This document shows positions 45,968 to 64,000 of a DNA stretch of 64,000 bases, piece after piece. Below the pieces are notes generated by a model. It had not been told where the DNA came from. It made no database searches and worked only from the letters and a program-made list of their open reading frames with translations. This DNA comes from Candidatus Methanomethylicia archaeon (GTDB lineage: Archaea; Thermoproteota; Methanomethylicia; Culexarchaeales; Culexarchaeaceae), in the NCBI GenBank assembly GCA_038727515.1, contig JAVYVS010000002.1, positions 224,001-288,000 on the forward strand, written 5' to 3'. Within the stretch, counting starts at the first letter, position 1, and each line of letters opens with the position of its first letter. A program made the translations under genes and the position numbers.

Positions 45968-46039
45968 TTTTCACATAGGTTCAAACAAAATTATTTTCAT
46001 TTTTATATATTTTTAAATATACTTATTAAAAAATGTTAC

Positions 46040-46054: not shown

Positions 46055-46117
46055 CCCATACACAAATACTACTATTAGCACTCCAAAAAAACTAAAATTA
46101 ATTAAGGAGGAACTTAA

Positions 46118-46918
46118 ATGAACCAACTATTTGTAGAGCAAATACTATTTACGGGTCGTGGAAGCAGTTTAGTTATACTAATACTACTGATAGCATTCTT
46201 CTTCATAGGGCTACAGCTTGCAAAGATGGGTAGACCCCCCAAAATGAGGCGTTTACCAGCTTTAGATGCTATTGATGAAGCTATTGGTAGATGTGCAGAA
46301 ATGGGCAAACCAGCACTATTCACACCAGGACTTACTGGAGATTTATATACTGAGCAAGGTCCTCAAATGGTTTCATCAATAACTATTTTAAGTTATATTG
46401 CTGAAGGATGCGCAAAATACGATGTTCCATTAATCATTGATATGTGTGCAGGTGATGCAATACCACTCATGGATGAAACTCTTAGACTTGCATATTTAAA
46501 GCAAGGTAAACCCGAGAAGTATGATCCCAAAATGATAAACTATTATCCAGGACAGTCTCCAATGGTAACTGGAATACTTGGACATTTACAGCGTCTACGC
46601 CCAGCAGCATTCTTCATGCTTGGAGGATTATATTATGAGAGTGTTGTGATAGGTGAAGCTGCAAATATGGTTGGATCTATGAACATTGGAGGTACAGTAA
46701 ATACCCACCAATTACCATTCATTATAGCAACTTGTGATTATGTATTGATTGGTGAAGAGTTCTATGCTGCAAGCACATACTTATCAAAAGATCCATATCA
46801 AATTGCAACGATAGCTGGTGAAGACTGGATAAAATTCATTTTAATAGCATTGTCTTTGCTAGGATTCATACTAGAACCACTAGGTATTAAAGTGATAAGT
46901 AATTTCTTGAGGTGGTGA
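46118..46918 (+). CDS. DUF6754-like membrane-anchored protein (module A, gene 1)
   Basis: N-terminal TM, RRLPALDAIDEAIGRCAEMGKP, GPQ, GTVNTHQLPF, DYVLIGEEFYAA..YLSKDP, C-terminal TM. Family name is from recall. Confidence 0.75.
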   Translation: MNQLFVEQILFTGRGSSLVILILLIAFFFIGLQLAKMGRPPKMRRLPALDAIDEAIGRCAEMGKPALFTPGLTGDLYTEQGPQMVSSITILSYIAEGCAKYDVPLIIDMCAGDAIPLMDETLRLAYLKQGKPEKYDPKMINYYPGQSPMVTGILGHLQRLRPAAFFMLGGLYYESVVIGEAANMVGSMNIGGTVNTHQLPFIIATCDYVLIGEEFYAASTYLSKDPYQIATIAGEDWIKFILIALSLLGFILEPLGIKVISNFLRW

Positions 46919-47586
46919 TGGTTATGGGTATGTCAGTTTTAAGAAGACCTGAAGTATTCATGTTTATTTCTGGTTTAGTTATGGGTTTAACCCTTTTTGG
47001 TTACTTCTTTAATGTACCACCAGTAATAGATACTGTAAATTGGCTTCAGACATTTGCAGTTCATATAAGTTATTTCGCTACATGGCTTGGATTCTTAACT
47101 GCTGCAAGAATTCACATAACCAATATTCAACGTAAAACTCCTGGCATATGGTATTTCAGCATAATAATGTTTATATTTGCACTTGTCCCATTCTTTGCAG
47201 CTTTACCAGAAATAACAAAACCATCTGTTACCACAATGATATATACGTGGCCCTTCAATTGGGTTTATACACCATTAGGTGCAGCGCTATACGCAACAAC
47301 TGGATTCTACATATTCTCAGCAGCTTACAGAGCATTTAGAGCTAGAAGTTTTGAAGCAGCAGTATTACTGATTGCTGGTTGTCTCGTTATGCTTGGTAAT
47401 GCACCAATAGGTGAACTTATTTGGAGTCAAATACCTACAATTAATGAATGGCTTCAATTAACTGGACAAACTCCTGCTATGCGTGCTTTAAATATTACTG
47501 CAGCTCTAGGTGTAGTTTACTTTGGATTAAGAGTTGTACTTGGTGCTGAGAAGAGGGTGATCACACTTGGTGCTGGAGGTGGATAG
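46912..47586 (+). CDS. Multi-pass membrane protein (module A, gene 2)
   Basis: About 6 TM; FYIFSAAYRAFRARSFEA, GNAPIG; paralog of 62757..63410. Confidence 0.85.
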   Translation: MVMVMGMSVLRRPEVFMFISGLVMGLTLFGYFFNVPPVIDTVNWLQTFAVHISYFATWLGFLTAARIHITNIQRKTPGIWYFSIIMFIFALVPFFAALPEITKPSVTTMIYTWPFNWVYTPLGAALYATTGFYIFSAAYRAFRARSFEAAVLLIAGCLVMLGNAPIGELIWSQIPTINEWLQLTGQTPAMRALNITAALGVVYFGLRVVLGAEKRVITLGAGGG

Positions 47587-47588
47587 AA

Positions 47589-48455
47589 ATGGGTGAATCT
47601 CAATCCATATGGGTAAAGCTGGGTGCTGTAGATAAACGTATACTATATTGGATATTATTTATATCATTGGCAATACCATACATACGTCCAATAGGATTGC
47701 CAGTATCAATTGCTGAAACGAGCTATGCTTTATACAATTTCATAGAAAAACTAGGTCCAAATGATGTTGCAGTTATGGCAATAGAATTTGGTGTTAGCGC
47801 TTGGTCTGAATGTTTACCTGGATTTGTAGCGGTTTCAAAGCATTTAGTGATGCGTGGTGTTAAGATAATATACTGGTGTGTTGGCTATACCGATTGTGAC
47901 TTAACTATGGAGGCTGTTAAAGCTAGAATTCCACAGCTTAAGGGTCCCGGCGAACCTGCAGGTCCCGGAGATTATAAGTATGGTGTTGATTGGGTTTATA
48001 TGGGTTATATTGCTGGTGGTGAAACTACTGTGGCTCAATTGGCTGATGATATACGTCAAGTTCTTAGAGCTGATAAATATGGTACTCCAATAGATCAAAT
48101 ACCATTATTCCAAAATGTTAGGAATGCAAATGATATTAAGATTGTTATAGATTCTACAACTGGAGATTATGGTGATTACTATGTTAGGCAGTGGAGGATT
48201 CGATATGGAACTGCTGTTGCTGAAATAGGTATAGCTATGAACTATTCAACGTTCATGGCATACTATCAAGCTGGATTAGCTGTAGGTGCATTGAAAGGTA
48301 TTAGAGGAGCTGCTGAATATGAGAAGTTAATAGGACAATTAGGTGAAGCAACAACAAGTTTAGATGCACTTAATGTTTCACATCTACTTGTAATAATCGC
48401 AATTATAATGGCTAATTTAAGTTATGTAATGACTAGACGTAGAGGTGGTGGGTGA
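47589..48455 (+). CDS. Membrane-anchored alpha/beta-domain protein (module A, gene 3)
   Basis: N- and C-terminal TM; PIGLPVSI, KYGVDWV.MGY..GGET, GIRGAAEYE; paralog of 63413..>64000. Confidence 0.85.
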   Translation: MGESQSIWVKLGAVDKRILYWILFISLAIPYIRPIGLPVSIAETSYALYNFIEKLGPNDVAVMAIEFGVSAWSECLPGFVAVSKHLVMRGVKIIYWCVGYTDCDLTMEAVKARIPQLKGPGEPAGPGDYKYGVDWVYMGYIAGGETTVAQLADDIRQVLRADKYGTPIDQIPLFQNVRNANDIKIVIDSTTGDYGDYYVRQWRIRYGTAVAEIGIAMNYSTFMAYYQAGLAVGALKGIRGAAEYEKLIGQLGEATTSLDALNVSHLLVIIAIIMANLSYVMTRRRGGG

Positions 48456-49096
48456 TGCCCTATCCAACAAATCCCGCTGATATAATTGGAGCTTGGGTTG
48501 GAGCATTCCTAACTTTAGCCATTTATAGCTATATCCTTTACAAAGAAACAAGAGTGTATAGGTTAGCTGAGTACATATATATTGGTATAGCCTTTGCTGT
48601 TTCATTAACTATCTCCGTTCAGCAGATTTGGAATCAAATAATAGTGCGTATACTTGGTGGCCAATACATTTACATTATTGGTGTAATATTGGGGTTAATG
48701 CTATTAACACTACCATTCAAAAGTATACGTTGGATAAGCAGGTATCCAGTAATCTTCCTAATGGGATTAGGATTCGGCGTTACCATTAGAGGTGCACTTA
48801 CCGCCAATATTGTTGGTCAGATAAGAGGTTCAATAACTCCACCTGGAGCTACTGCTACGATTCTTGATTGGTTTAACTTTGCATGGATATGCCTTGGAAC
48901 GTTACTCATAATATCATATTTCACATTTACAGTTGAACACACTGGATGGTATTATTACCCAACGAAACTTGGCAGATATATACTGTTACTTGGTTTAGGC
49001 GCATACTATGGTAATACTGTGCAATTCAGAATGACCATGCTTGCAGGCAGAGTTCAATTCTTATTACAAGTGTTCAAAATAATTCCATGGCCGTAA
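48452..49096 (+). CDS. Multi-pass membrane protein (module A, gene 4)
   Basis: About 5-6 TM; TLAIYS.ILYKE, AEYIYIG, YFTFT, GAYYGNTV..RM..L.GR. Confidence 0.85.
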   Translation: MMPYPTNPADIIGAWVGAFLTLAIYSYILYKETRVYRLAEYIYIGIAFAVSLTISVQQIWNQIIVRILGGQYIYIIGVILGLMLLTLPFKSIRWISRYPVIFLMGLGFGVTIRGALTANIVGQIRGSITPPGATATILDWFNFAWICLGTLLIISYFTFTVEHTGWYYYPTKLGRYILLLGLGAYYGNTVQFRMTMLAGRVQFLLQVFKIIPWP

Positions 49097-49157
49097 AAGG
49101 ATAATTAAATTTAATTTCTATTTTTTATAGTTAATTTAACATATTTGGTATTTCATA

Positions 49158-50430: not shown

Positions 50431-50961
50431 TTGGTGTTATATTTGTGGTCTGATGTGACTACGTTAAGTGAGAAATTTGATGGTAGCCTTAAAGAGAAAG
50501 TTACTCGTTTTCCATCAATATTAAATCCTTCTTCCTGTTTTCAATGTGGTAAATGTACTAGTGGATGTACAATTATGGTTTTAATGGAAAACTTTCCACA
50601 TAGAGTTGTTGATATGGTTAAATTAGGGTTAATCTCTGAACTTCTTAGATCTGATGTTATATGGGCTTGTACTCAGTGTCAGAAATGTAGAGATGCATGT
50701 CCACAAAATGTTAATCCTTCTGAAATCTTTATTGTTTTAAGAAATATGAGTATAATTGAAGGTGGAAGTGTTCCAGAAGCTTATATGAATATGCTTTCAA
50801 AAGTTTTAGAGTCTGGTTATATTCAGGATGCGATAAGTGTAATCGGATCTGATGGTTTAATATATGATCGTTCAAAACTTGGTTTAGTAAATCTTAAGGG
50901 TCCTAGAGATATGAGTATCTTCCAAAATAATTGTATGGAAGCTTTTCAAAGGAGTGTTTAA
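50431..50961 (+). CDS. hdrC: Heterodisulfide reductase subunit C-like
   Basis: CFQCGKCTSGC and IWACTQCQKCRDACPQ; coupled to hdrB. Confidence 0.9.
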   Translation: MVLYLWSDVTTLSEKFDGSLKEKVTRFPSILNPSSCFQCGKCTSGCTIMVLMENFPHRVVDMVKLGLISELLRSDVIWACTQCQKCRDACPQNVNPSEIFIVLRNMSIIEGGSVPEAYMNMLSKVLESGYIQDAISVIGSDGLIYDRSKLGLVNLKGPRDMSIFQNNCMEAFQRSV

Positions 50962-51820
50962 AATGGAATATATAATTTATCCCGGATGTTTAAGTGTTAC
51001 TGAGCAATATTCATATGAAGTTTCATGTATAAACGTTTTGAATCATTTAGGTGTAGATTTTACTTATGCTGAAAATGTTAATTGTTGCGGTTTTCCTCTT
51101 AGAAGTTTAAATTCCTTTGGATGGATATACTTATCTGCACGTTTAATTTCTGTTTTAGAAGATTACAATAAACCTTGCATACTGCTTTGTAATTGGTGTC
51201 ACGCATCATTAACATATGCATTGAAAATTCTTAGTGAAAATGAAGAATTAACCTCTTGGGTTAACGATCTTTTATCAAAGGAGGATTTGAGATTTAATGG
51301 TAAACTTGTATTCAAACATTTATTGGGATTCTTATATTACGATATTGGAATTGAGAAGTTGAAATCGAATATTAAGAGGTTTATGGGAGGTTTAAAATTC
51401 TCTATACATCCTGGATGTCTATTCTTTAGACCTAGAGATATTGATAGACCTGATAACCCATATGAACCTAGAATTCTTAAAGATCTCGTTGAATTATTGG
51501 GTGCTGAAGCTAATGTACATTTAGACTGTTGTGGATGGGCTATTTACAAAACTAATAGTGATACTGGTTTAACTTTAGCTGGAAATAGAATTAAGACTGC
51601 TTATGGTACTGATGGAATAATTATATCGTGTCCTCATGGCGGTGAAATGTTGGATAAATATTATAATGATGCATGTAAAACCATTGGATTTAATGGTGAA
51701 GTTCCAGTATTATACTACACTCAGCTATTGGGTTTAGCCCTTGGAATTGACCCTAAGAATCTAGCTTTAAACCTAAATAAATCCCCAGTAAAATCACTAT
51801 TAGATAAGATTGGTGTTTGA
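50954..51820 (+). CDS. hdrB: Heterodisulfide reductase subunit B-like (CCG domains)
   Basis: YPGC..NCCG..LCNWC; HPGC..DCCG..SCPHG; PVLYYTQLLGLALG. Confidence 0.9.
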   Translation: MFKMEYIIYPGCLSVTEQYSYEVSCINVLNHLGVDFTYAENVNCCGFPLRSLNSFGWIYLSARLISVLEDYNKPCILLCNWCHASLTYALKILSENEELTSWVNDLLSKEDLRFNGKLVFKHLLGFLYYDIGIEKLKSNIKRFMGGLKFSIHPGCLFFRPRDIDRPDNPYEPRILKDLVELLGAEANVHLDCCGWAIYKTNSDTGLTLAGNRIKTAYGTDGIIISCPHGGEMLDKYYNDACKTIGFNGEVPVLYYTQLLGLALGIDPKNLALNLNKSPVKSLLDKIGV

Positions 51821-53050
51821 TTTAGGTAATGGAACTATTGTGGAAGCATTATATACGACTTTAACTTCAGCATCTTTACCCTTAACTCTTATTGCTTCAT
51901 TTATTGCTTCCTCTAAATCGTAGAATGCCCTTATTCCAATATCTTCTAAAACTTCCTTCCTAAGTGAAGTTACAGCCCATACATCTGTCCTCATAAATGT
52001 TTCTAACATTTTCGCAGCTTTATGATATCCAAGTTTATAATTCCTCCTTATATGTTCTAATGTACTCTCTACATCTTTATTTTCCCTACTCTTTAGTAAT
52101 AAATCGTAGAAGTTTCTTGGACCTATACCATCCCTACATTCAGCCACTAATATTATTATTCCACCATCCTTCACCACTAATTTCGAATGTTCTATTGCTT
52201 TTTGTGCTTGATATAATGATATATCAAATGGATTATTTGCTACTGCAACTACTATATCCCCCTTTCCATGGGATTCAACTATAAATATCTCATTGGCTTT
52301 TTCTACACTTTCCATGAAACTTGTTTTTATATTACCAGTCTTTATTGATGCTAATTCTCCATTAGCATCTAGAACCATCATTATTGAATATATATCTTCA
52401 ATCCTACCTAGTACTTCTAATGCATCCATCATATCTTCATGAACTGGATTTCCATTCAATTTCAATAATGTTGCATTTGAATCTAATGCGAATCTATGAT
52501 TGTATTCTATTGTTCCGTAACTTGATAATCCTGGAAGTAGAAATTTCCTTCCTCCAGTATACCCTGCGAAATAATGTGGTTCAACTGATCCTATAACTAT
52601 GATTTTATCAGCTTCCAATAATCTTTTATCAATGTATACTCTATTTCCACGTTTTGTTTCTCCAATATATTCATGTTCTTCAACTTTCTTTGCATCATGT
52701 ATTACAGTTCTATACCTATAATAATCATATTTATTTCCCAATATCCACTTTAATTCTTCTTCAGTTGGAGATCTATGAGCTCCTGTAGCTACAATTATCT
52801 TAACCTCTTTATCTTTAATCTTTTCATGTATTTTATTAAGTATTTTTGATGTGGGTGTTGGTCTTTCTTGATCATTCACCACCAATAAGATTTTTCCCTT
52901 ATCGTATATGAAATCTTCAATTTCCCTATCTATTGATACATTTACATCCCCTGTAATAGCTTTCTTCAAATTTAATGTTTCAATTGAGATTTCACTTGGT
53001 ACTTTACATTTTATAATCCTTTTATTTCCATATGGAATTTCTATGATCAC
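51800..53050 (-). CDS. larA: Nickel-pincer-dependent lactate racemase family (LarA)
   Basis: IPYG, VND.ERPTP, ATGAHR, PHYFAGYTGGRK..LPG, NPVHEDM, LYQAQKA, AEC.DG.G. Confidence 0.92.
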   Translation of the reverse strand: MIIEIPYGNKRIIKCKVPSEISIETLNLKKAITGDVNVSIDREIEDFIYDKGKILLVVNDQERPTPTSKILNKIHEKIKDKEVKIIVATGAHRSPTEEELKWILGNKYDYYRYRTVIHDAKKVEEHEYIGETKRGNRVYIDKRLLEADKIIVIGSVEPHYFAGYTGGRKFLLPGLSSYGTIEYNHRFALDSNATLLKLNGNPVHEDMMDALEVLGRIEDIYSIMMVLDANGELASIKTGNIKTSFMESVEKANEIFIVESHGKGDIVVAVANNPFDISLYQAQKAIEHSKLVVKDGGIIILVAECRDGIGPRNFYDLLLKSRENKDVESTLEHIRRNYKLGYHKAAKMLETFMRTDVWAVTSLRKEVLEDIGIRAFYDLEEAINEAIRVKGKDAEVKVVYNASTIVPLPKSNTNLI

Positions 53051-61942: not shown

Positions 61943-62752
61943 ATGCTATCCTATCCATTATATCTATCACAAATTCTAAAGTCTGGTAGAGTTAGTGGAC
62001 TCGTTTTCTTATTGATAATAGCAATATCCGCAGCATACTTCATTAGGCGTGGTAAAGCTGGTAAGGTTCCATATATTAGGAGAGTTTCTGGTCTCGATGC
62101 TATTGATGAAGCTATTGGAAGAGCCACTGAGATGGGACGTCCAGTATTTTGTTCGCATGGTATAGCAAGTATAGCTGATGCAACTTATGGTCCACAAACC
62201 ATCGCCGGTCTCTCAGTATTAGGTTATGTAGCTCAATTATGTGCTAAGTATGGTACTAGGCTAATAGTTCCAATTAGACAAGTTGCAGTTTATCCTATTG
62301 CCAGAGAAATCGTTGAAAACGCATATAGAGCTGAAGGTAAATTAGATCAATTTAGAGTTGAAGACCTTGTATACCTCTCAGGTTGGCAGTTTGGTTACTC
62401 TCTTGGTTATATGAGTTTAATGCAGAGGGAGAAGGCTGGTGCAAATATCATGATCGGTGGGTATTGGGCTGAATCATTGCAGTTGGCGGAGGTTGGGTAT
62501 ATGGTTGGTGCTATGCAGGTTAGTGGAACAGCAAACACACACCAAATACCATTCTTCGTAGTAGCAACAGACTACTGCCTAATAGGAGAAGAAATCTTTG
62601 CAGCAGGAGCATACCTAAGCAAAGACCCAGCAATGATAGGAAGCATAGTAGCACAAGACATAGGAAAATTTATCTCTGTAGCTCTCATAGTTATAAGTTT
62701 CATTCTTCTGCTTGGTGGCTCTAAATTTATTGTAGACTTGTTGAGGTGGTAG
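61943..62752 (+). CDS. DUF6754-like membrane-anchored protein (module B, gene 1)
   Basis: IRRVSGLDAIDEAIGRATEMGRP, YGPQ, GTANTHQIPF, DYCLIGEEIFAA.AYLSKDP; paralog of 46118..46918. Confidence 0.78.
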   Translation: MLSYPLYLSQILKSGRVSGLVFLLIIAISAAYFIRRGKAGKVPYIRRVSGLDAIDEAIGRATEMGRPVFCSHGIASIADATYGPQTIAGLSVLGYVAQLCAKYGTRLIVPIRQVAVYPIAREIVENAYRAEGKLDQFRVEDLVYLSGWQFGYSLGYMSLMQREKAGANIMIGGYWAESLQLAEVGYMVGAMQVSGTANTHQIPFFVVATDYCLIGEEIFAAGAYLSKDPAMIGSIVAQDIGKFISVALIVISFILLLGGSKFIVDLLRW

Positions 62753-62756
62753 ATGT

Positions 62757-63410
62757 ATGTCTTGGCTTAAACGTGTTGAAATTCCAATAGCAATAACAAT
62801 TATATGCGCACTAATACAAATAGTACCATACTTTATTAGCATGGGTGTTGATGTAGAGAATTTCCAAAGTAAATTTGTAAGTTGGAGTTTGGTTGTGGGT
62901 ACTGGTGCATTAATGGTTGGTGCAATTTCTCTACTATTAATACATGTTCCAAAAATTACCCATCGACGTCAATACTGGGAGTATAGTCTACTTTTAATGG
63001 TTTTCATGTTTATTATGGCATTACTTGGTTTACCAATTTCAGAAATTGGTTTAGGCTTAACGAATTATTGGTTTACTTTCCTATATAATAATGTTTTAAC
63101 GCCTCTTTCATCTAGCATGTATGCTATAATTGCATTCTATATTACTTCTGCGGCTTATAGAGCTTTTAAAGCTAGATCTTTAGAGGCTGGATTATTATTG
63201 TTGGCTGGAAGTATACTGGTGTTTAGAAATGCTCCATTAGGAACATTCTTAATACCTGCTTCAGCGGATATAGGCGATTGGATATTCAACATACCAAATA
63301 TGGCTGTGAATAGAGCTATAATGATTGGTGGTGGGCTTGGAGCTATGATTCTTGGAATTAGAACCTTAATGGGTTATGAGAGAGGTTACTTAAGAGGTGG
63401 AGGTGAATAA
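62757..63410 (+). CDS. Multi-pass membrane protein (module B, gene 2)
   Basis: FYITSAAYRAFKARSLEA, RNAPLG; paralog of 46912..47586. Confidence 0.85.
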   Translation: MSWLKRVEIPIAITIICALIQIVPYFISMGVDVENFQSKFVSWSLVVGTGALMVGAISLLLIHVPKITHRRQYWEYSLLLMVFMFIMALLGLPISEIGLGLTNYWFTFLYNNVLTPLSSSMYAIIAFYITSAAYRAFKARSLEAGLLLLAGSILVFRNAPLGTFLIPASADIGDWIFNIPNMAVNRAIMIGGGLGAMILGIRTLMGYERGYLRGGGE

Positions 63411-63412
63411 AT

Positions 63413-64000
63413 ATGGGTAGTAACGTAAGCTTGTGGGAAAAGCTTGAAAATATTGATGTTAGGATAATATATTTAATATTGTGGATAGTAATTCTATGGC
63501 CCTTTATATACCCCATAGGTCTACCAGTAAGTATAGGTTCTTATGCTATATCGTATGCTAAGACCATCGATGAATTACCACCAGGTTCTATGGTTGTAGT
63601 ATCCTTTGACTTCAGTCTTGGCGGCCTTGGAGAATTATATCCAATAGTTGTTGCTACCATGCACCACCTATTCACTAAACCCATTAAGATTGCTATTATC
63701 GCCATATGGGTTGACGGTCCCATAGTGGCTAATATGGTGTTAAATGAGTTGAAACCTGAAAATCCTCCATATAATAAGAAGTACGGTGTGGATTGGATTT
63801 TCCTCGGATACGTGCCTGGTGGGGAAACTGCCATGGCTGCTTTAGGCAGAGACTTCTGGAATACACTTCCATTAGATTACATTTACAAGAAACCTGTTAG
63901 TGAATATCCAATAATGCAAAAATTAAGGTCTGCAGCAGATGTAAATTTACTTGTAAGTTTTGAAACTGGTACTCCTGGAGCTGATGAATGGGTTAGGCAA
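63413..64000 (+). CDS. Membrane-anchored protein (module B, gene 3), 3'-truncated by window edge; not in ORF track
   Basis: Manual translation MGSNVSLWEKLENIDVRIIYLILWIVILWPFIYPIGLPVSIG...KYGVDWIFLGYVPGGET...EWVRQ; GGAGGTG SD; paralog of 47589..48455. Confidence 0.88.
   Translation, partial: MGSNVSLWEKLENIDVRIIYLILWIVILWPFIYPIGLPVSIGSYAISYAKTIDELPPGSMVVVSFDFSLGGLGELYPIVVATMHHLFTKPIKIAIIAIWVDGPIVANMVLNELKPENPPYNKKYGVDWIFLGYVPGGETAMAALGRDFWNTLPLDYIYKKPVSEYPIMQKLRSAADVNLLVSFETGTPGADEWVRQ

Follow-up and report, generated by a model that had tools for sequence, protein, structure and literature searches.

A conserved four-gene DUF6754 membrane cassette of a Culexarchaeales archaeon, genetically linked to a GlmL/MutL-type ATPase, as a candidate module for solute uptake

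The DNA considered here, hereafter the window, is a 64,000-nucleotide (nt) stretch of contig JAVYVS010000002.1 (positions 224,001 to 288,000, forward strand; NCBI GenBank assembly GCA_038727515.1) from a Candidatus Methanomethylicia archaeon of the order Culexarchaeales. The element in question is a run of four membrane protein genes at window positions 46,118 to 49,096, which we call g1 to g4 and, taken together, cassette A. All four are plus-strand open reading frames (ORFs), of 266, 224, 288, and 214 amino acids (aa), respectively. The first, g1 (46,118 to 46,918), encodes a DUF6754 protein, assigned by its match to Pfam PF20539 and by an AlphaFold2 model. It is followed by g2 (46,912 to 47,586), an ORF for a polytopic membrane subunit with ~6 transmembrane (TM) segments, an N terminus predicted to lie inside, and an invariant motif, SAAYRAFRAR; by g3 (47,589 to 48,455), a bitopic subunit described from its AlphaFold2 model, with its N terminus predicted inside and a basic C-terminal tail; and by g4 (48,452 to 49,096), an ORF for a second polytopic subunit, with ~5 TM segments, an N terminus predicted outside, and a basic C-terminal region.

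The four genes are coupled translationally. The g1 product ends in LRW, and its TGA stop codon shares an A with an in-frame ATG at 46,918 that has GAGGTG just 5' of it; this ATG, overlapping the g1 stop, is the likely start of g2. The g2 reading frame ends in GAGGG-TAG, with GGAGGTGGA 6 to 8 nt ahead of the g3 ATG at 47,589, and g3 ends in RRGGG-TGA, overlapping an ATG at 48,455 that is preceded by GAGGTGGTGGG and is the likely start of g4. The initial annotation had described four tightly coupled genes with the Shine-Dalgarno sequences embedded in the last codons of the upstream genes, and the junctions read as it claimed. Ahead of g1, a Shine-Dalgarno sequence, AAGGAGG (46,104 to 46,110), stands 7 nt from the ATG at 46,118, and ~95 nt upstream of the gene an AT-rich, TATA-like stretch (46,000 to 46,022) can be read as a candidate archaeal promoter. 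A T-rich tract 3' of g4 (49,110 to 49,127, with T6 at 49,121 to 49,126), also on the plus strand, is a candidate archaeal terminator, and g1 to g4 probably form a single transcription unit.

The g1 protein matched DUF6754 over profile positions 8 to 256 of 257 (E = 1.4e-67; score, 228 bits; cut-off, 27). No Pfam or NCBIfam family matched g2, g3, or g4, and a Pfam domain was found in none of 614 g2 homologues. The g3 family comprised 1,983 representative clusters (50% identity clusters) at E ≤ 0.001. Family alignments contain invariant positions, namely, S83, F132, S136, Y139, R140, F142, R145, W180, and E213 in g2 and E40, G105, F157, T189, and R200 in g4, together with four acidic residues (D134, D162, D182, and E245) conserved in all members of the g3 family. 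Profiles of the four proteins had no match among PDB sequences at E ≤ 1, and a shape search of the ESM Atlas returned hypothetical proteins only. That no known transporter motif is visible, as had been remarked from the sequence, is borne out by the Pfam, NCBIfam, and PDB searches, in which no homology to any characterized transporter appeared. Our literature search found no paper that mentions DUF6754 or this gene set.

AlphaFold2 models built on deep alignments had a predicted local distance difference test score (pLDDT) of 93.7 and a predicted template modeling score (pTM) of 0.88 for g1 and values of 95.9 and 0.91 for g3. The two models are alike, each with an N-terminal TM helix, a six-stranded α/β domain, and a long C-terminal TM helix, and the order of helices and strands in the two α/β domains is identical. 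In g1, TM1 spans residues ~15 to 36, the Rossmann-like domain residues 37 to 225, and TM2 residues 226 to 255; in g3, the corresponding limits are ~19 to 37, 38 to 252, and 253 to 284, followed by the basic C-terminal tail. Both models thus display the common layout of TM helix, soluble domain, and TM helix that had been proposed for g1 and g3, and hydropathy, with ~6 segments in g2 and ~5 in g4, agrees with the 5 to 6 TM segments proposed for each of the other two. Foldseek searches against the PDB gave generic α/β matches only for g1 and g3 (E ≥ 5e-4); 10 chains were common to the two top-50 lists, including MT0777, RCK/KTN, PntB domain III, and Sir2. Since such values fall within the range of common arrangements, we do not draw the function of either domain from them. 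A four-chain complex prediction with g1 as partner scored 0.81, compared with 0.79 for a control in which g3 was replaced, values too close to bear on assembly in either direction.

The initial annotation had gone further and read the four genes as a pseudo-symmetric 2+2 assembly. An origin of this kind by duplication is unsupported by profile-profile comparison: hhalign detected no homology between g1 and g3 (probability, 2.2%) or between g2 and g4 (0.8%), and the term can therefore describe a likeness of layout at most. The g1/g3 hhalign alignment was in register with secondary structure and was not counted as evidence of duplication. Judged from the fold searches, the soluble domains of g1 and g3 have in common only the generic Rossmann-like class, and g2 and g4 appear to be two unrelated polytopic subunits.

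A further part of that annotation, the placement of the g1 and g3 domains on opposite sides of the membrane, finds support in sequence evidence of three independent kinds, which agree with one another. By the positive-inside rule, g1 proteins in the family alignment average 4.6 lysine plus arginine residues in the 15 residues after TM1 versus 1.5 before it, and g3 proteins have 2.1 in the N-terminal tail and 3.1 in the C-terminal tail versus 1.2 and 1.1 at the domain flanks. Longer bacterial g1 proteins carry at the N terminus a signal-peptide-like segment and, after it, domains of the fn3-like or PQQ beta-propeller type, which would put the g1 N terminus outside and the DUF6754 domain inside. 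Conversely, g3 relatives in Chloroflexota have N-terminal zinc ribbons, and the g3 N terminus would therefore lie inside and the g3 domain outside. We accordingly predict an N-out g1 with a cytoplasmic domain and an N-in g3 with an external domain; g2 is probably N-in with ~6 TM segments and g4 N-out with ~5 TM segments and a basic C-terminal region.

Cassette A is one of eight colinear g1-g2-g3-g4 cassettes in this 1.59-Mb genome, the others being 28 to 42% identical to it. One of them, cassette B, lies on the plus strand at the end of the window (61,943 to 64,000), with its g1 at 61,943 to 62,752, its g2 at 62,757 to 63,410, and its g3 running from 63,413 past the window end; its identity to cassette A is 31 to 41% by tblastn. 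Across the seven intact paralogues, conservation is highest in the g1 cytoplasmic domain (47% identity; invariant in 30 of 189 columns, with R58, E61, E174, E180, and E214 among them), compared with 33% identity for the g3 outer domain and 25% for TM1 to TM3 of g2. In the eighth copy, cassette H, an in-frame TAA splits the g1 ORF (C1:633963-634778) into 149 and 101 aa and g2 to g4 are intact; this copy may be decaying, or the stop may be an assembly error. DUF6754 was present in all 11 reasonably complete members of the order and in none of 29 other members of the class.

The same arrangement is widespread in both domains. Among the 600 matched stretches listed for species-representative genomes, at least 594 were confirmed by tblastn as relatives of g1. 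The exact order g1-g2-g3-g4 was found in 68 of 81 fetched loci from ~20 bacterial and archaeal phyla, and the remaining loci were mostly cut by contig ends or held two or three cassettes in tandem, with three in Ignavibacteria and Zixibacteria. Other lineages with the cassette include Bathyarchaeia, Eisenbacteria, Poribacteria, Planctomycetota, Armatimonadota, Cloacimonadota, WOR-3, Sumerlaeota, and Bacillota, the last including Symbiobacterium thermophilum. In one genome of the Fimbriimonadaceae, DUF6754 is followed 3' by three genes that match g2, g3, and g4 as homologues (E = 3e-15, 5e-16, and 5e-15, respectively). Across domains, each of the g2, g3, and g4 proteins is 21 to 28% identical to its counterpart. 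Multiplication is not confined to our archaeon, as the 2.3-Mb genome of the Firmicute Fermentithermobacillus carries ~13 cassettes. With its order kept in 68 of 81 foreign loci and eight times in a single genome, the four-gene arrangement is far beyond chance, and the neighborhood survey upholds the conserved four-gene unit that had been suspected from one locus.

In contrast, the view of this unit as a self-contained module free of an ATPase did not hold, because the cassette is genetically tied to two proteins encoded outside the window. In 23 of 80 foreign loci, a PF13941 (GlmL/MutL) protein of ~620 aa and/or a protein of ~380 aa lies beside the cassette on the same strand, and in such adjacent loci the gene for the smaller partner often overlaps g1. 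Our genome encodes this pair once, on another contig (C1:552758-555782), where the partner protein has 384 aa, and none of the eight cassettes adjoins it. The pair is 43 to 66% identical to its foreign counterparts. The ATPase matched PF13941 with 404 bits, has the ASKHA phosphate-1 motif DVGSTTTK (DxGxTxTK), and bears a C-terminal extension of ~125 aa. Its scores against GlmL (NF040745; 209.5 bits) and Or-4 (NF040744; 207.8 bits) fall below the equivalog cut-offs of 475 and 600, and no B12-dependent mutase gene neighbors the pair at its locus. The 384-aa partner gave a weak barrel-sandwich signal of the RnfC_N/biotinyl type (RnfC_N, 23 bits, below the cut-off of 25.6) and has a KOW-like C terminus with a weak KOW match to Spt5, beyond which neither member of the pair matched anything in the PDB search. 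Atlas feature searches with the partner and with g2 returned hypothetical clusters only, and in the literature on GlmL, MutL, ASKHA, and barrel-sandwich proteins we found nothing on an ATPase-cassette system.

Co-occurrence genome by genome ties the pair to the cassette even where the two are unlinked. Among 41 related genomes, the 384-aa protein and DUF6754 occurred in the same 11, and PF13941 exceeded its cut-off in 10 of these. In an even sample of 201 Thermoproteota, the partner was found in four genomes, all four with DUF6754, and the fifth DUF6754 match was a fragment at a contig edge. Among 121 Armatimonadota, 103 had both, 2 had DUF6754 only, 2 had the partner only, and 14 had neither. 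Five bacterial genomes in which the pair was absent near the sampled cassette each encoded one orthologue elsewhere (49 to 54% identity), with 1, 1, 5, 6, and 14 DUF6754 matches per genome. In a concatenated tree, cassette A was sister, with support of 100, to Bathyarchaeota cassettes located directly behind the pair and is therefore the closest relative of this "fused" form. On these grounds we consider it very probable that the cassette belongs to an ATPase-linked system of six components, namely, g1, g2, g3, g4, the GlmL/MutL-type ASKHA ATPase, and the 384-aa barrel-sandwich/KOW protein.

At the pair locus itself (C1:550569-556301; L099:5569-11301, minus strand), a 148-aa gene without a known family precedes the pair, and a Peptidase_M55 (D-aminopeptidase) gene and then a gene for a pyridoxal phosphate-dependent ornithine/diaminopimelate/arginine decarboxylase follow 3' on the same strand. 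Two Firmicute loci hold extra paralogous pairs, with partners of ~450 to 490 aa that are 31 to 42% identical, besides the short orthologue; one of these, in Candidatus Fermentithermobacillus carboniphilus (G219:C1:1614000-1630000), has two ATPase-partner pairs in tandem.

We propose that the cassette supplies the membrane part and the receptor of a solute uptake system driven by ATP, a reading to which we give a probability of roughly 45%. The external g3 domain would receive the substrate, g2 and g4 would form the substrate path, and the g1 cytoplasmic domain would dock the single ATPase/partner pair common to all cassettes, so that the eight cassettes would represent eight specificities on one motor. 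In this scheme, all cassettes would share the pair as their cytoplasmic motor or adaptor, and specificity would reside in the cassettes themselves. Such a division fits the conservation gradient: across domains, the pair (43 to 66%) is more conserved than g2 to g4 (21 to 28%), and among the paralogues, the g1 domain is more conserved than the g3 outer domain and TM1 to TM3 of g2. Uptake seems to be the most economical role for the modules, since the cassettes are many and diverged, have varied catabolic or salvage neighbors, and stand in a genome with only four matches to the permease family BPD_transp_1 (beside ~23 ABC ATPase domain matches over the cut-off and the eight DUF6754 cassettes). 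Culexarchaeia/Methanomethylicia have been characterized as anaerobic peptide-fermenting generalists (PMC9723716). The amino acid or organic acid that the initial annotation proposed as the substrate is a guess. More tentatively still, the system could constitute a new class of primary active transporter. A single motor, made up of an actin-fold ATPase with a barrel-sandwich/KOW adaptor, would be shared among exchangeable membrane modules of four subunits, in each of which g3 would supply an external receptor domain anchored in the membrane and g1 a docking domain in the cytoplasm.

Genes beside the cassettes in our genome encode an acyl-CoA dehydrogenase, GDPD, DUF885, amidohydrolases, M20 and M28 peptidases, creatininase, and ThiD. 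Those recurring in both the archaeon and Fermentithermobacillus or other Firmicutes are a D-aminoacylase-like amidohydrolase plus M20, creatininase, ThiD, and DapF. The amidohydrolase (Amidohydro_3, 500 to 560 aa) adjoins a cassette at C1:353233-354915 and recurs next to cassettes at no fewer than six loci in Firmicutes; an M20 peptidase frequently accompanies it. A ThiD-like hydroxymethylpyrimidine phosphate kinase adjoins another cassette (C1:630438-631787), and a kinase with 53% identity to it follows a Fermentithermobacillus cassette (L115:8410-9324). We considered whether cassettes with the same neighbor enzyme are orthologous across domains and rejected this, as the tree separates the archaeal from the Firmicute expansions; the ThiD-adjacent cassettes are non-orthologous, and the shared ThiD thus reflects convergence or chance. 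Within the window, at 50,431 to 53,050, a LarA-like gene (Lar_N, LarA_C) faces convergent HdrC-like (4Fe-4S dicluster) and HdrB-like (CCG) genes.

Several points count against uptake. We know of no ASKHA ATPase that drives a transporter. The expansions are lineage specific, so common neighbors were not inherited and neighbor evidence is weak. The structure models are of g1 and g3 as single chains only. The co-occurrence pattern is repeated in both domains and in three separate samples, but the counts come from related genomes that are not independent of one another, and for this reason we attach no P value to them. In Armatimonadota, finally, the system is single copy and near universal (105 of 121 sampled genomes, 87%), and one locus lies among the housekeeping genes glmU, prs, recO, and sepF, a pattern that accords equally with uptake and with a core envelope function. 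Such a function is the substance of a rather unlikely alternative, in which the six components form an ATPase-linked membrane machine that imports no solute and instead acts in envelope biogenesis, lipid or protein handling, or transmembrane signaling; the actin-fold ATPase would provide a conformational or scaffolding motor, with a change passed from one side of the membrane to the other by the g1 and g3 domains. The secreted fn3 and beta-propeller extensions of bacterial g1 proteins are typical of envelope-facing proteins, g3 keeps its acidic residues throughout the family instead of having a variable pocket, and the known membrane-associated ASKHA proteins FtsA, PilM, and MreB are scaffolds rather than transport ATPases, all of which accords with such a machine. 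It accounts less readily for up to 8 to 14 diverged cassettes in a small genome with one pair, which are easier to explain by substrate specificity, or for the recurrence of cassettes beside catabolic and salvage enzymes (amidohydrolases, M20, creatininase, and ThiD).

Whether the ATPase belongs to the system at all is the issue in another alternative, which we regard as improbable: the four proteins could be a self-contained, ATP-independent heterotetramer, acting as a secondary transporter or relay, with the pair as a frequent neighbor that acts on the imported compound. That the pair adjoins no cassette in our genome and is not nearby in 57 of 80 sampled loci would suit this arrangement, as would the occurrence of the GlmL family in amino acid fermentation operons (according to NCBIfam names) and the M55 D-aminopeptidase and ornithine/diaminopimelate decarboxylase genes 3' of the pair. 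However, presence and absence of pair and cassette match nearly perfectly in three genome samples, the partner gene frequently overlaps g1 translationally, and the ATPase scores far under the GlmL and Or-4 cut-offs and has no mutase neighbor. One conserved pair serving many diverged cassettes is, moreover, the reverse of the pattern of substrate-matched enzymes. A more specific suggestion comes from cassette B, which begins 65 nt after genes for an OadA-like carboxyltransferase and a BCCP on the same strand, such that the cassette, or at least this copy, might take the place of the beta subunit in the membrane part of a sodium pump of the biotin-dependent decarboxylase type. We rejected this reading, the remotest of those considered: an OadA homologue was found in none of 92 other cassette loci (0 of 80 foreign and 0 of 12 Fermentithermobacillus loci, at E ≤ 1e-10 and 1e-8). 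Cassette C, 73% identical to B, has a methyltransferase upstream rather than OadA/BCCP, so the adjacency to a biotin enzyme is not conserved even there; the cassette co-occurs with the ATPase pair and not with biotin enzymes, and the Pfam search of g1 to g4 gave no match to OadB/GcdB.

The cassette families are large, with ~2,000 clusters at 50% identity for g3, yet three of the four are unnamed, and they occupy a sizable share of coding capacity in some genomes (eight cassettes of ~3 kb in a 1.6-Mb archaeal genome; ~13 in a 2.3-Mb Firmicute). If an uptake machine with an actin-fold ATPase is indeed at work, it would represent a new energizing principle in membrane transport and a major nutrient uptake route in many uncultured anaerobes, with eight modules here and ~13 in Fermentithermobacillus, and it would close gaps in the reconstructed metabolism of Culexarchaeia, Bathyarchaeia, Armatimonadota, Planctomycetota, Cloacimonadota, and others. 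If the envelope machine is the true reading, a near-universal system of Armatimonadota has so far had no assigned role. Either reading is testable in cultured hosts such as S. thermophilum. The present analysis contributes the case of an archaeon whose pair stands apart from all eight cassettes, counts of co-occurrence taken genome by genome, and the gradient of conservation among paralogues.

Compared with known systems, the six-component system is outside every described kind. Transhydrogenase PntB domain III, Sir2, and RCK/KTN resemble the g1 and g3 domains at fold level only. Rnf/Nqr complexes include a pair of small polytopic subunits whose N termini face opposite sides, as is predicted for the cassette, and the N-terminal region of the partner protein gives a weak RnfC/NqrA-like barrel-sandwich hybrid signal (23 bits, sub-cut-off), but g2 and g4 matched no Rnf-Nqr family and have no conserved Cys, flavin, or Fe-S motif. 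Tripartite ATP-independent periplasmic (TRAP) transporters and tripartite tricarboxylate transporters (TTT) likewise combine two unequal membrane subunits with an extracytoplasmic receptor domain. The cassette differs from both in the two TM helices that anchor the receptor-like g3, in having a fourth subunit, with a cytoplasmic domain, and in its link to an ATPase; no DctP/Q/M or TctA/B/C match was found in Pfam and NCBIfam searches at E ≤ 0.01. With GlmL/MutL of glutamate mutase and Or-4 of ornithine degradation, the partner ATPase shares its PF13941 match and its ASKHA phosphate-1 motif. It departs from them in falling under the equivalog cut-offs, in lacking a B12 mutase neighbor, in its ~125-aa C-terminal extension, and in its association with a fixed 384-aa partner and a membrane cassette. 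The genomic organization resembles that of group II energy-coupling factor (ECF) and MsiK-type ATP-binding cassette (ABC) importers, in which an energizing module encoded once serves many scattered and diverged membrane modules and conservation is stronger in the motor than in the membrane parts. No ABC_tran (PF00005) or BPD_transp match was found in g1 to g4 or their neighbors (ABC genes lie elsewhere in the genome), and the cassette system, without an ABC ATPase, EcfT, or S-component, has no component in common with ECF. Unlike in those importers, the candidate motor of the cassette system has the actin/Hsp70 fold.

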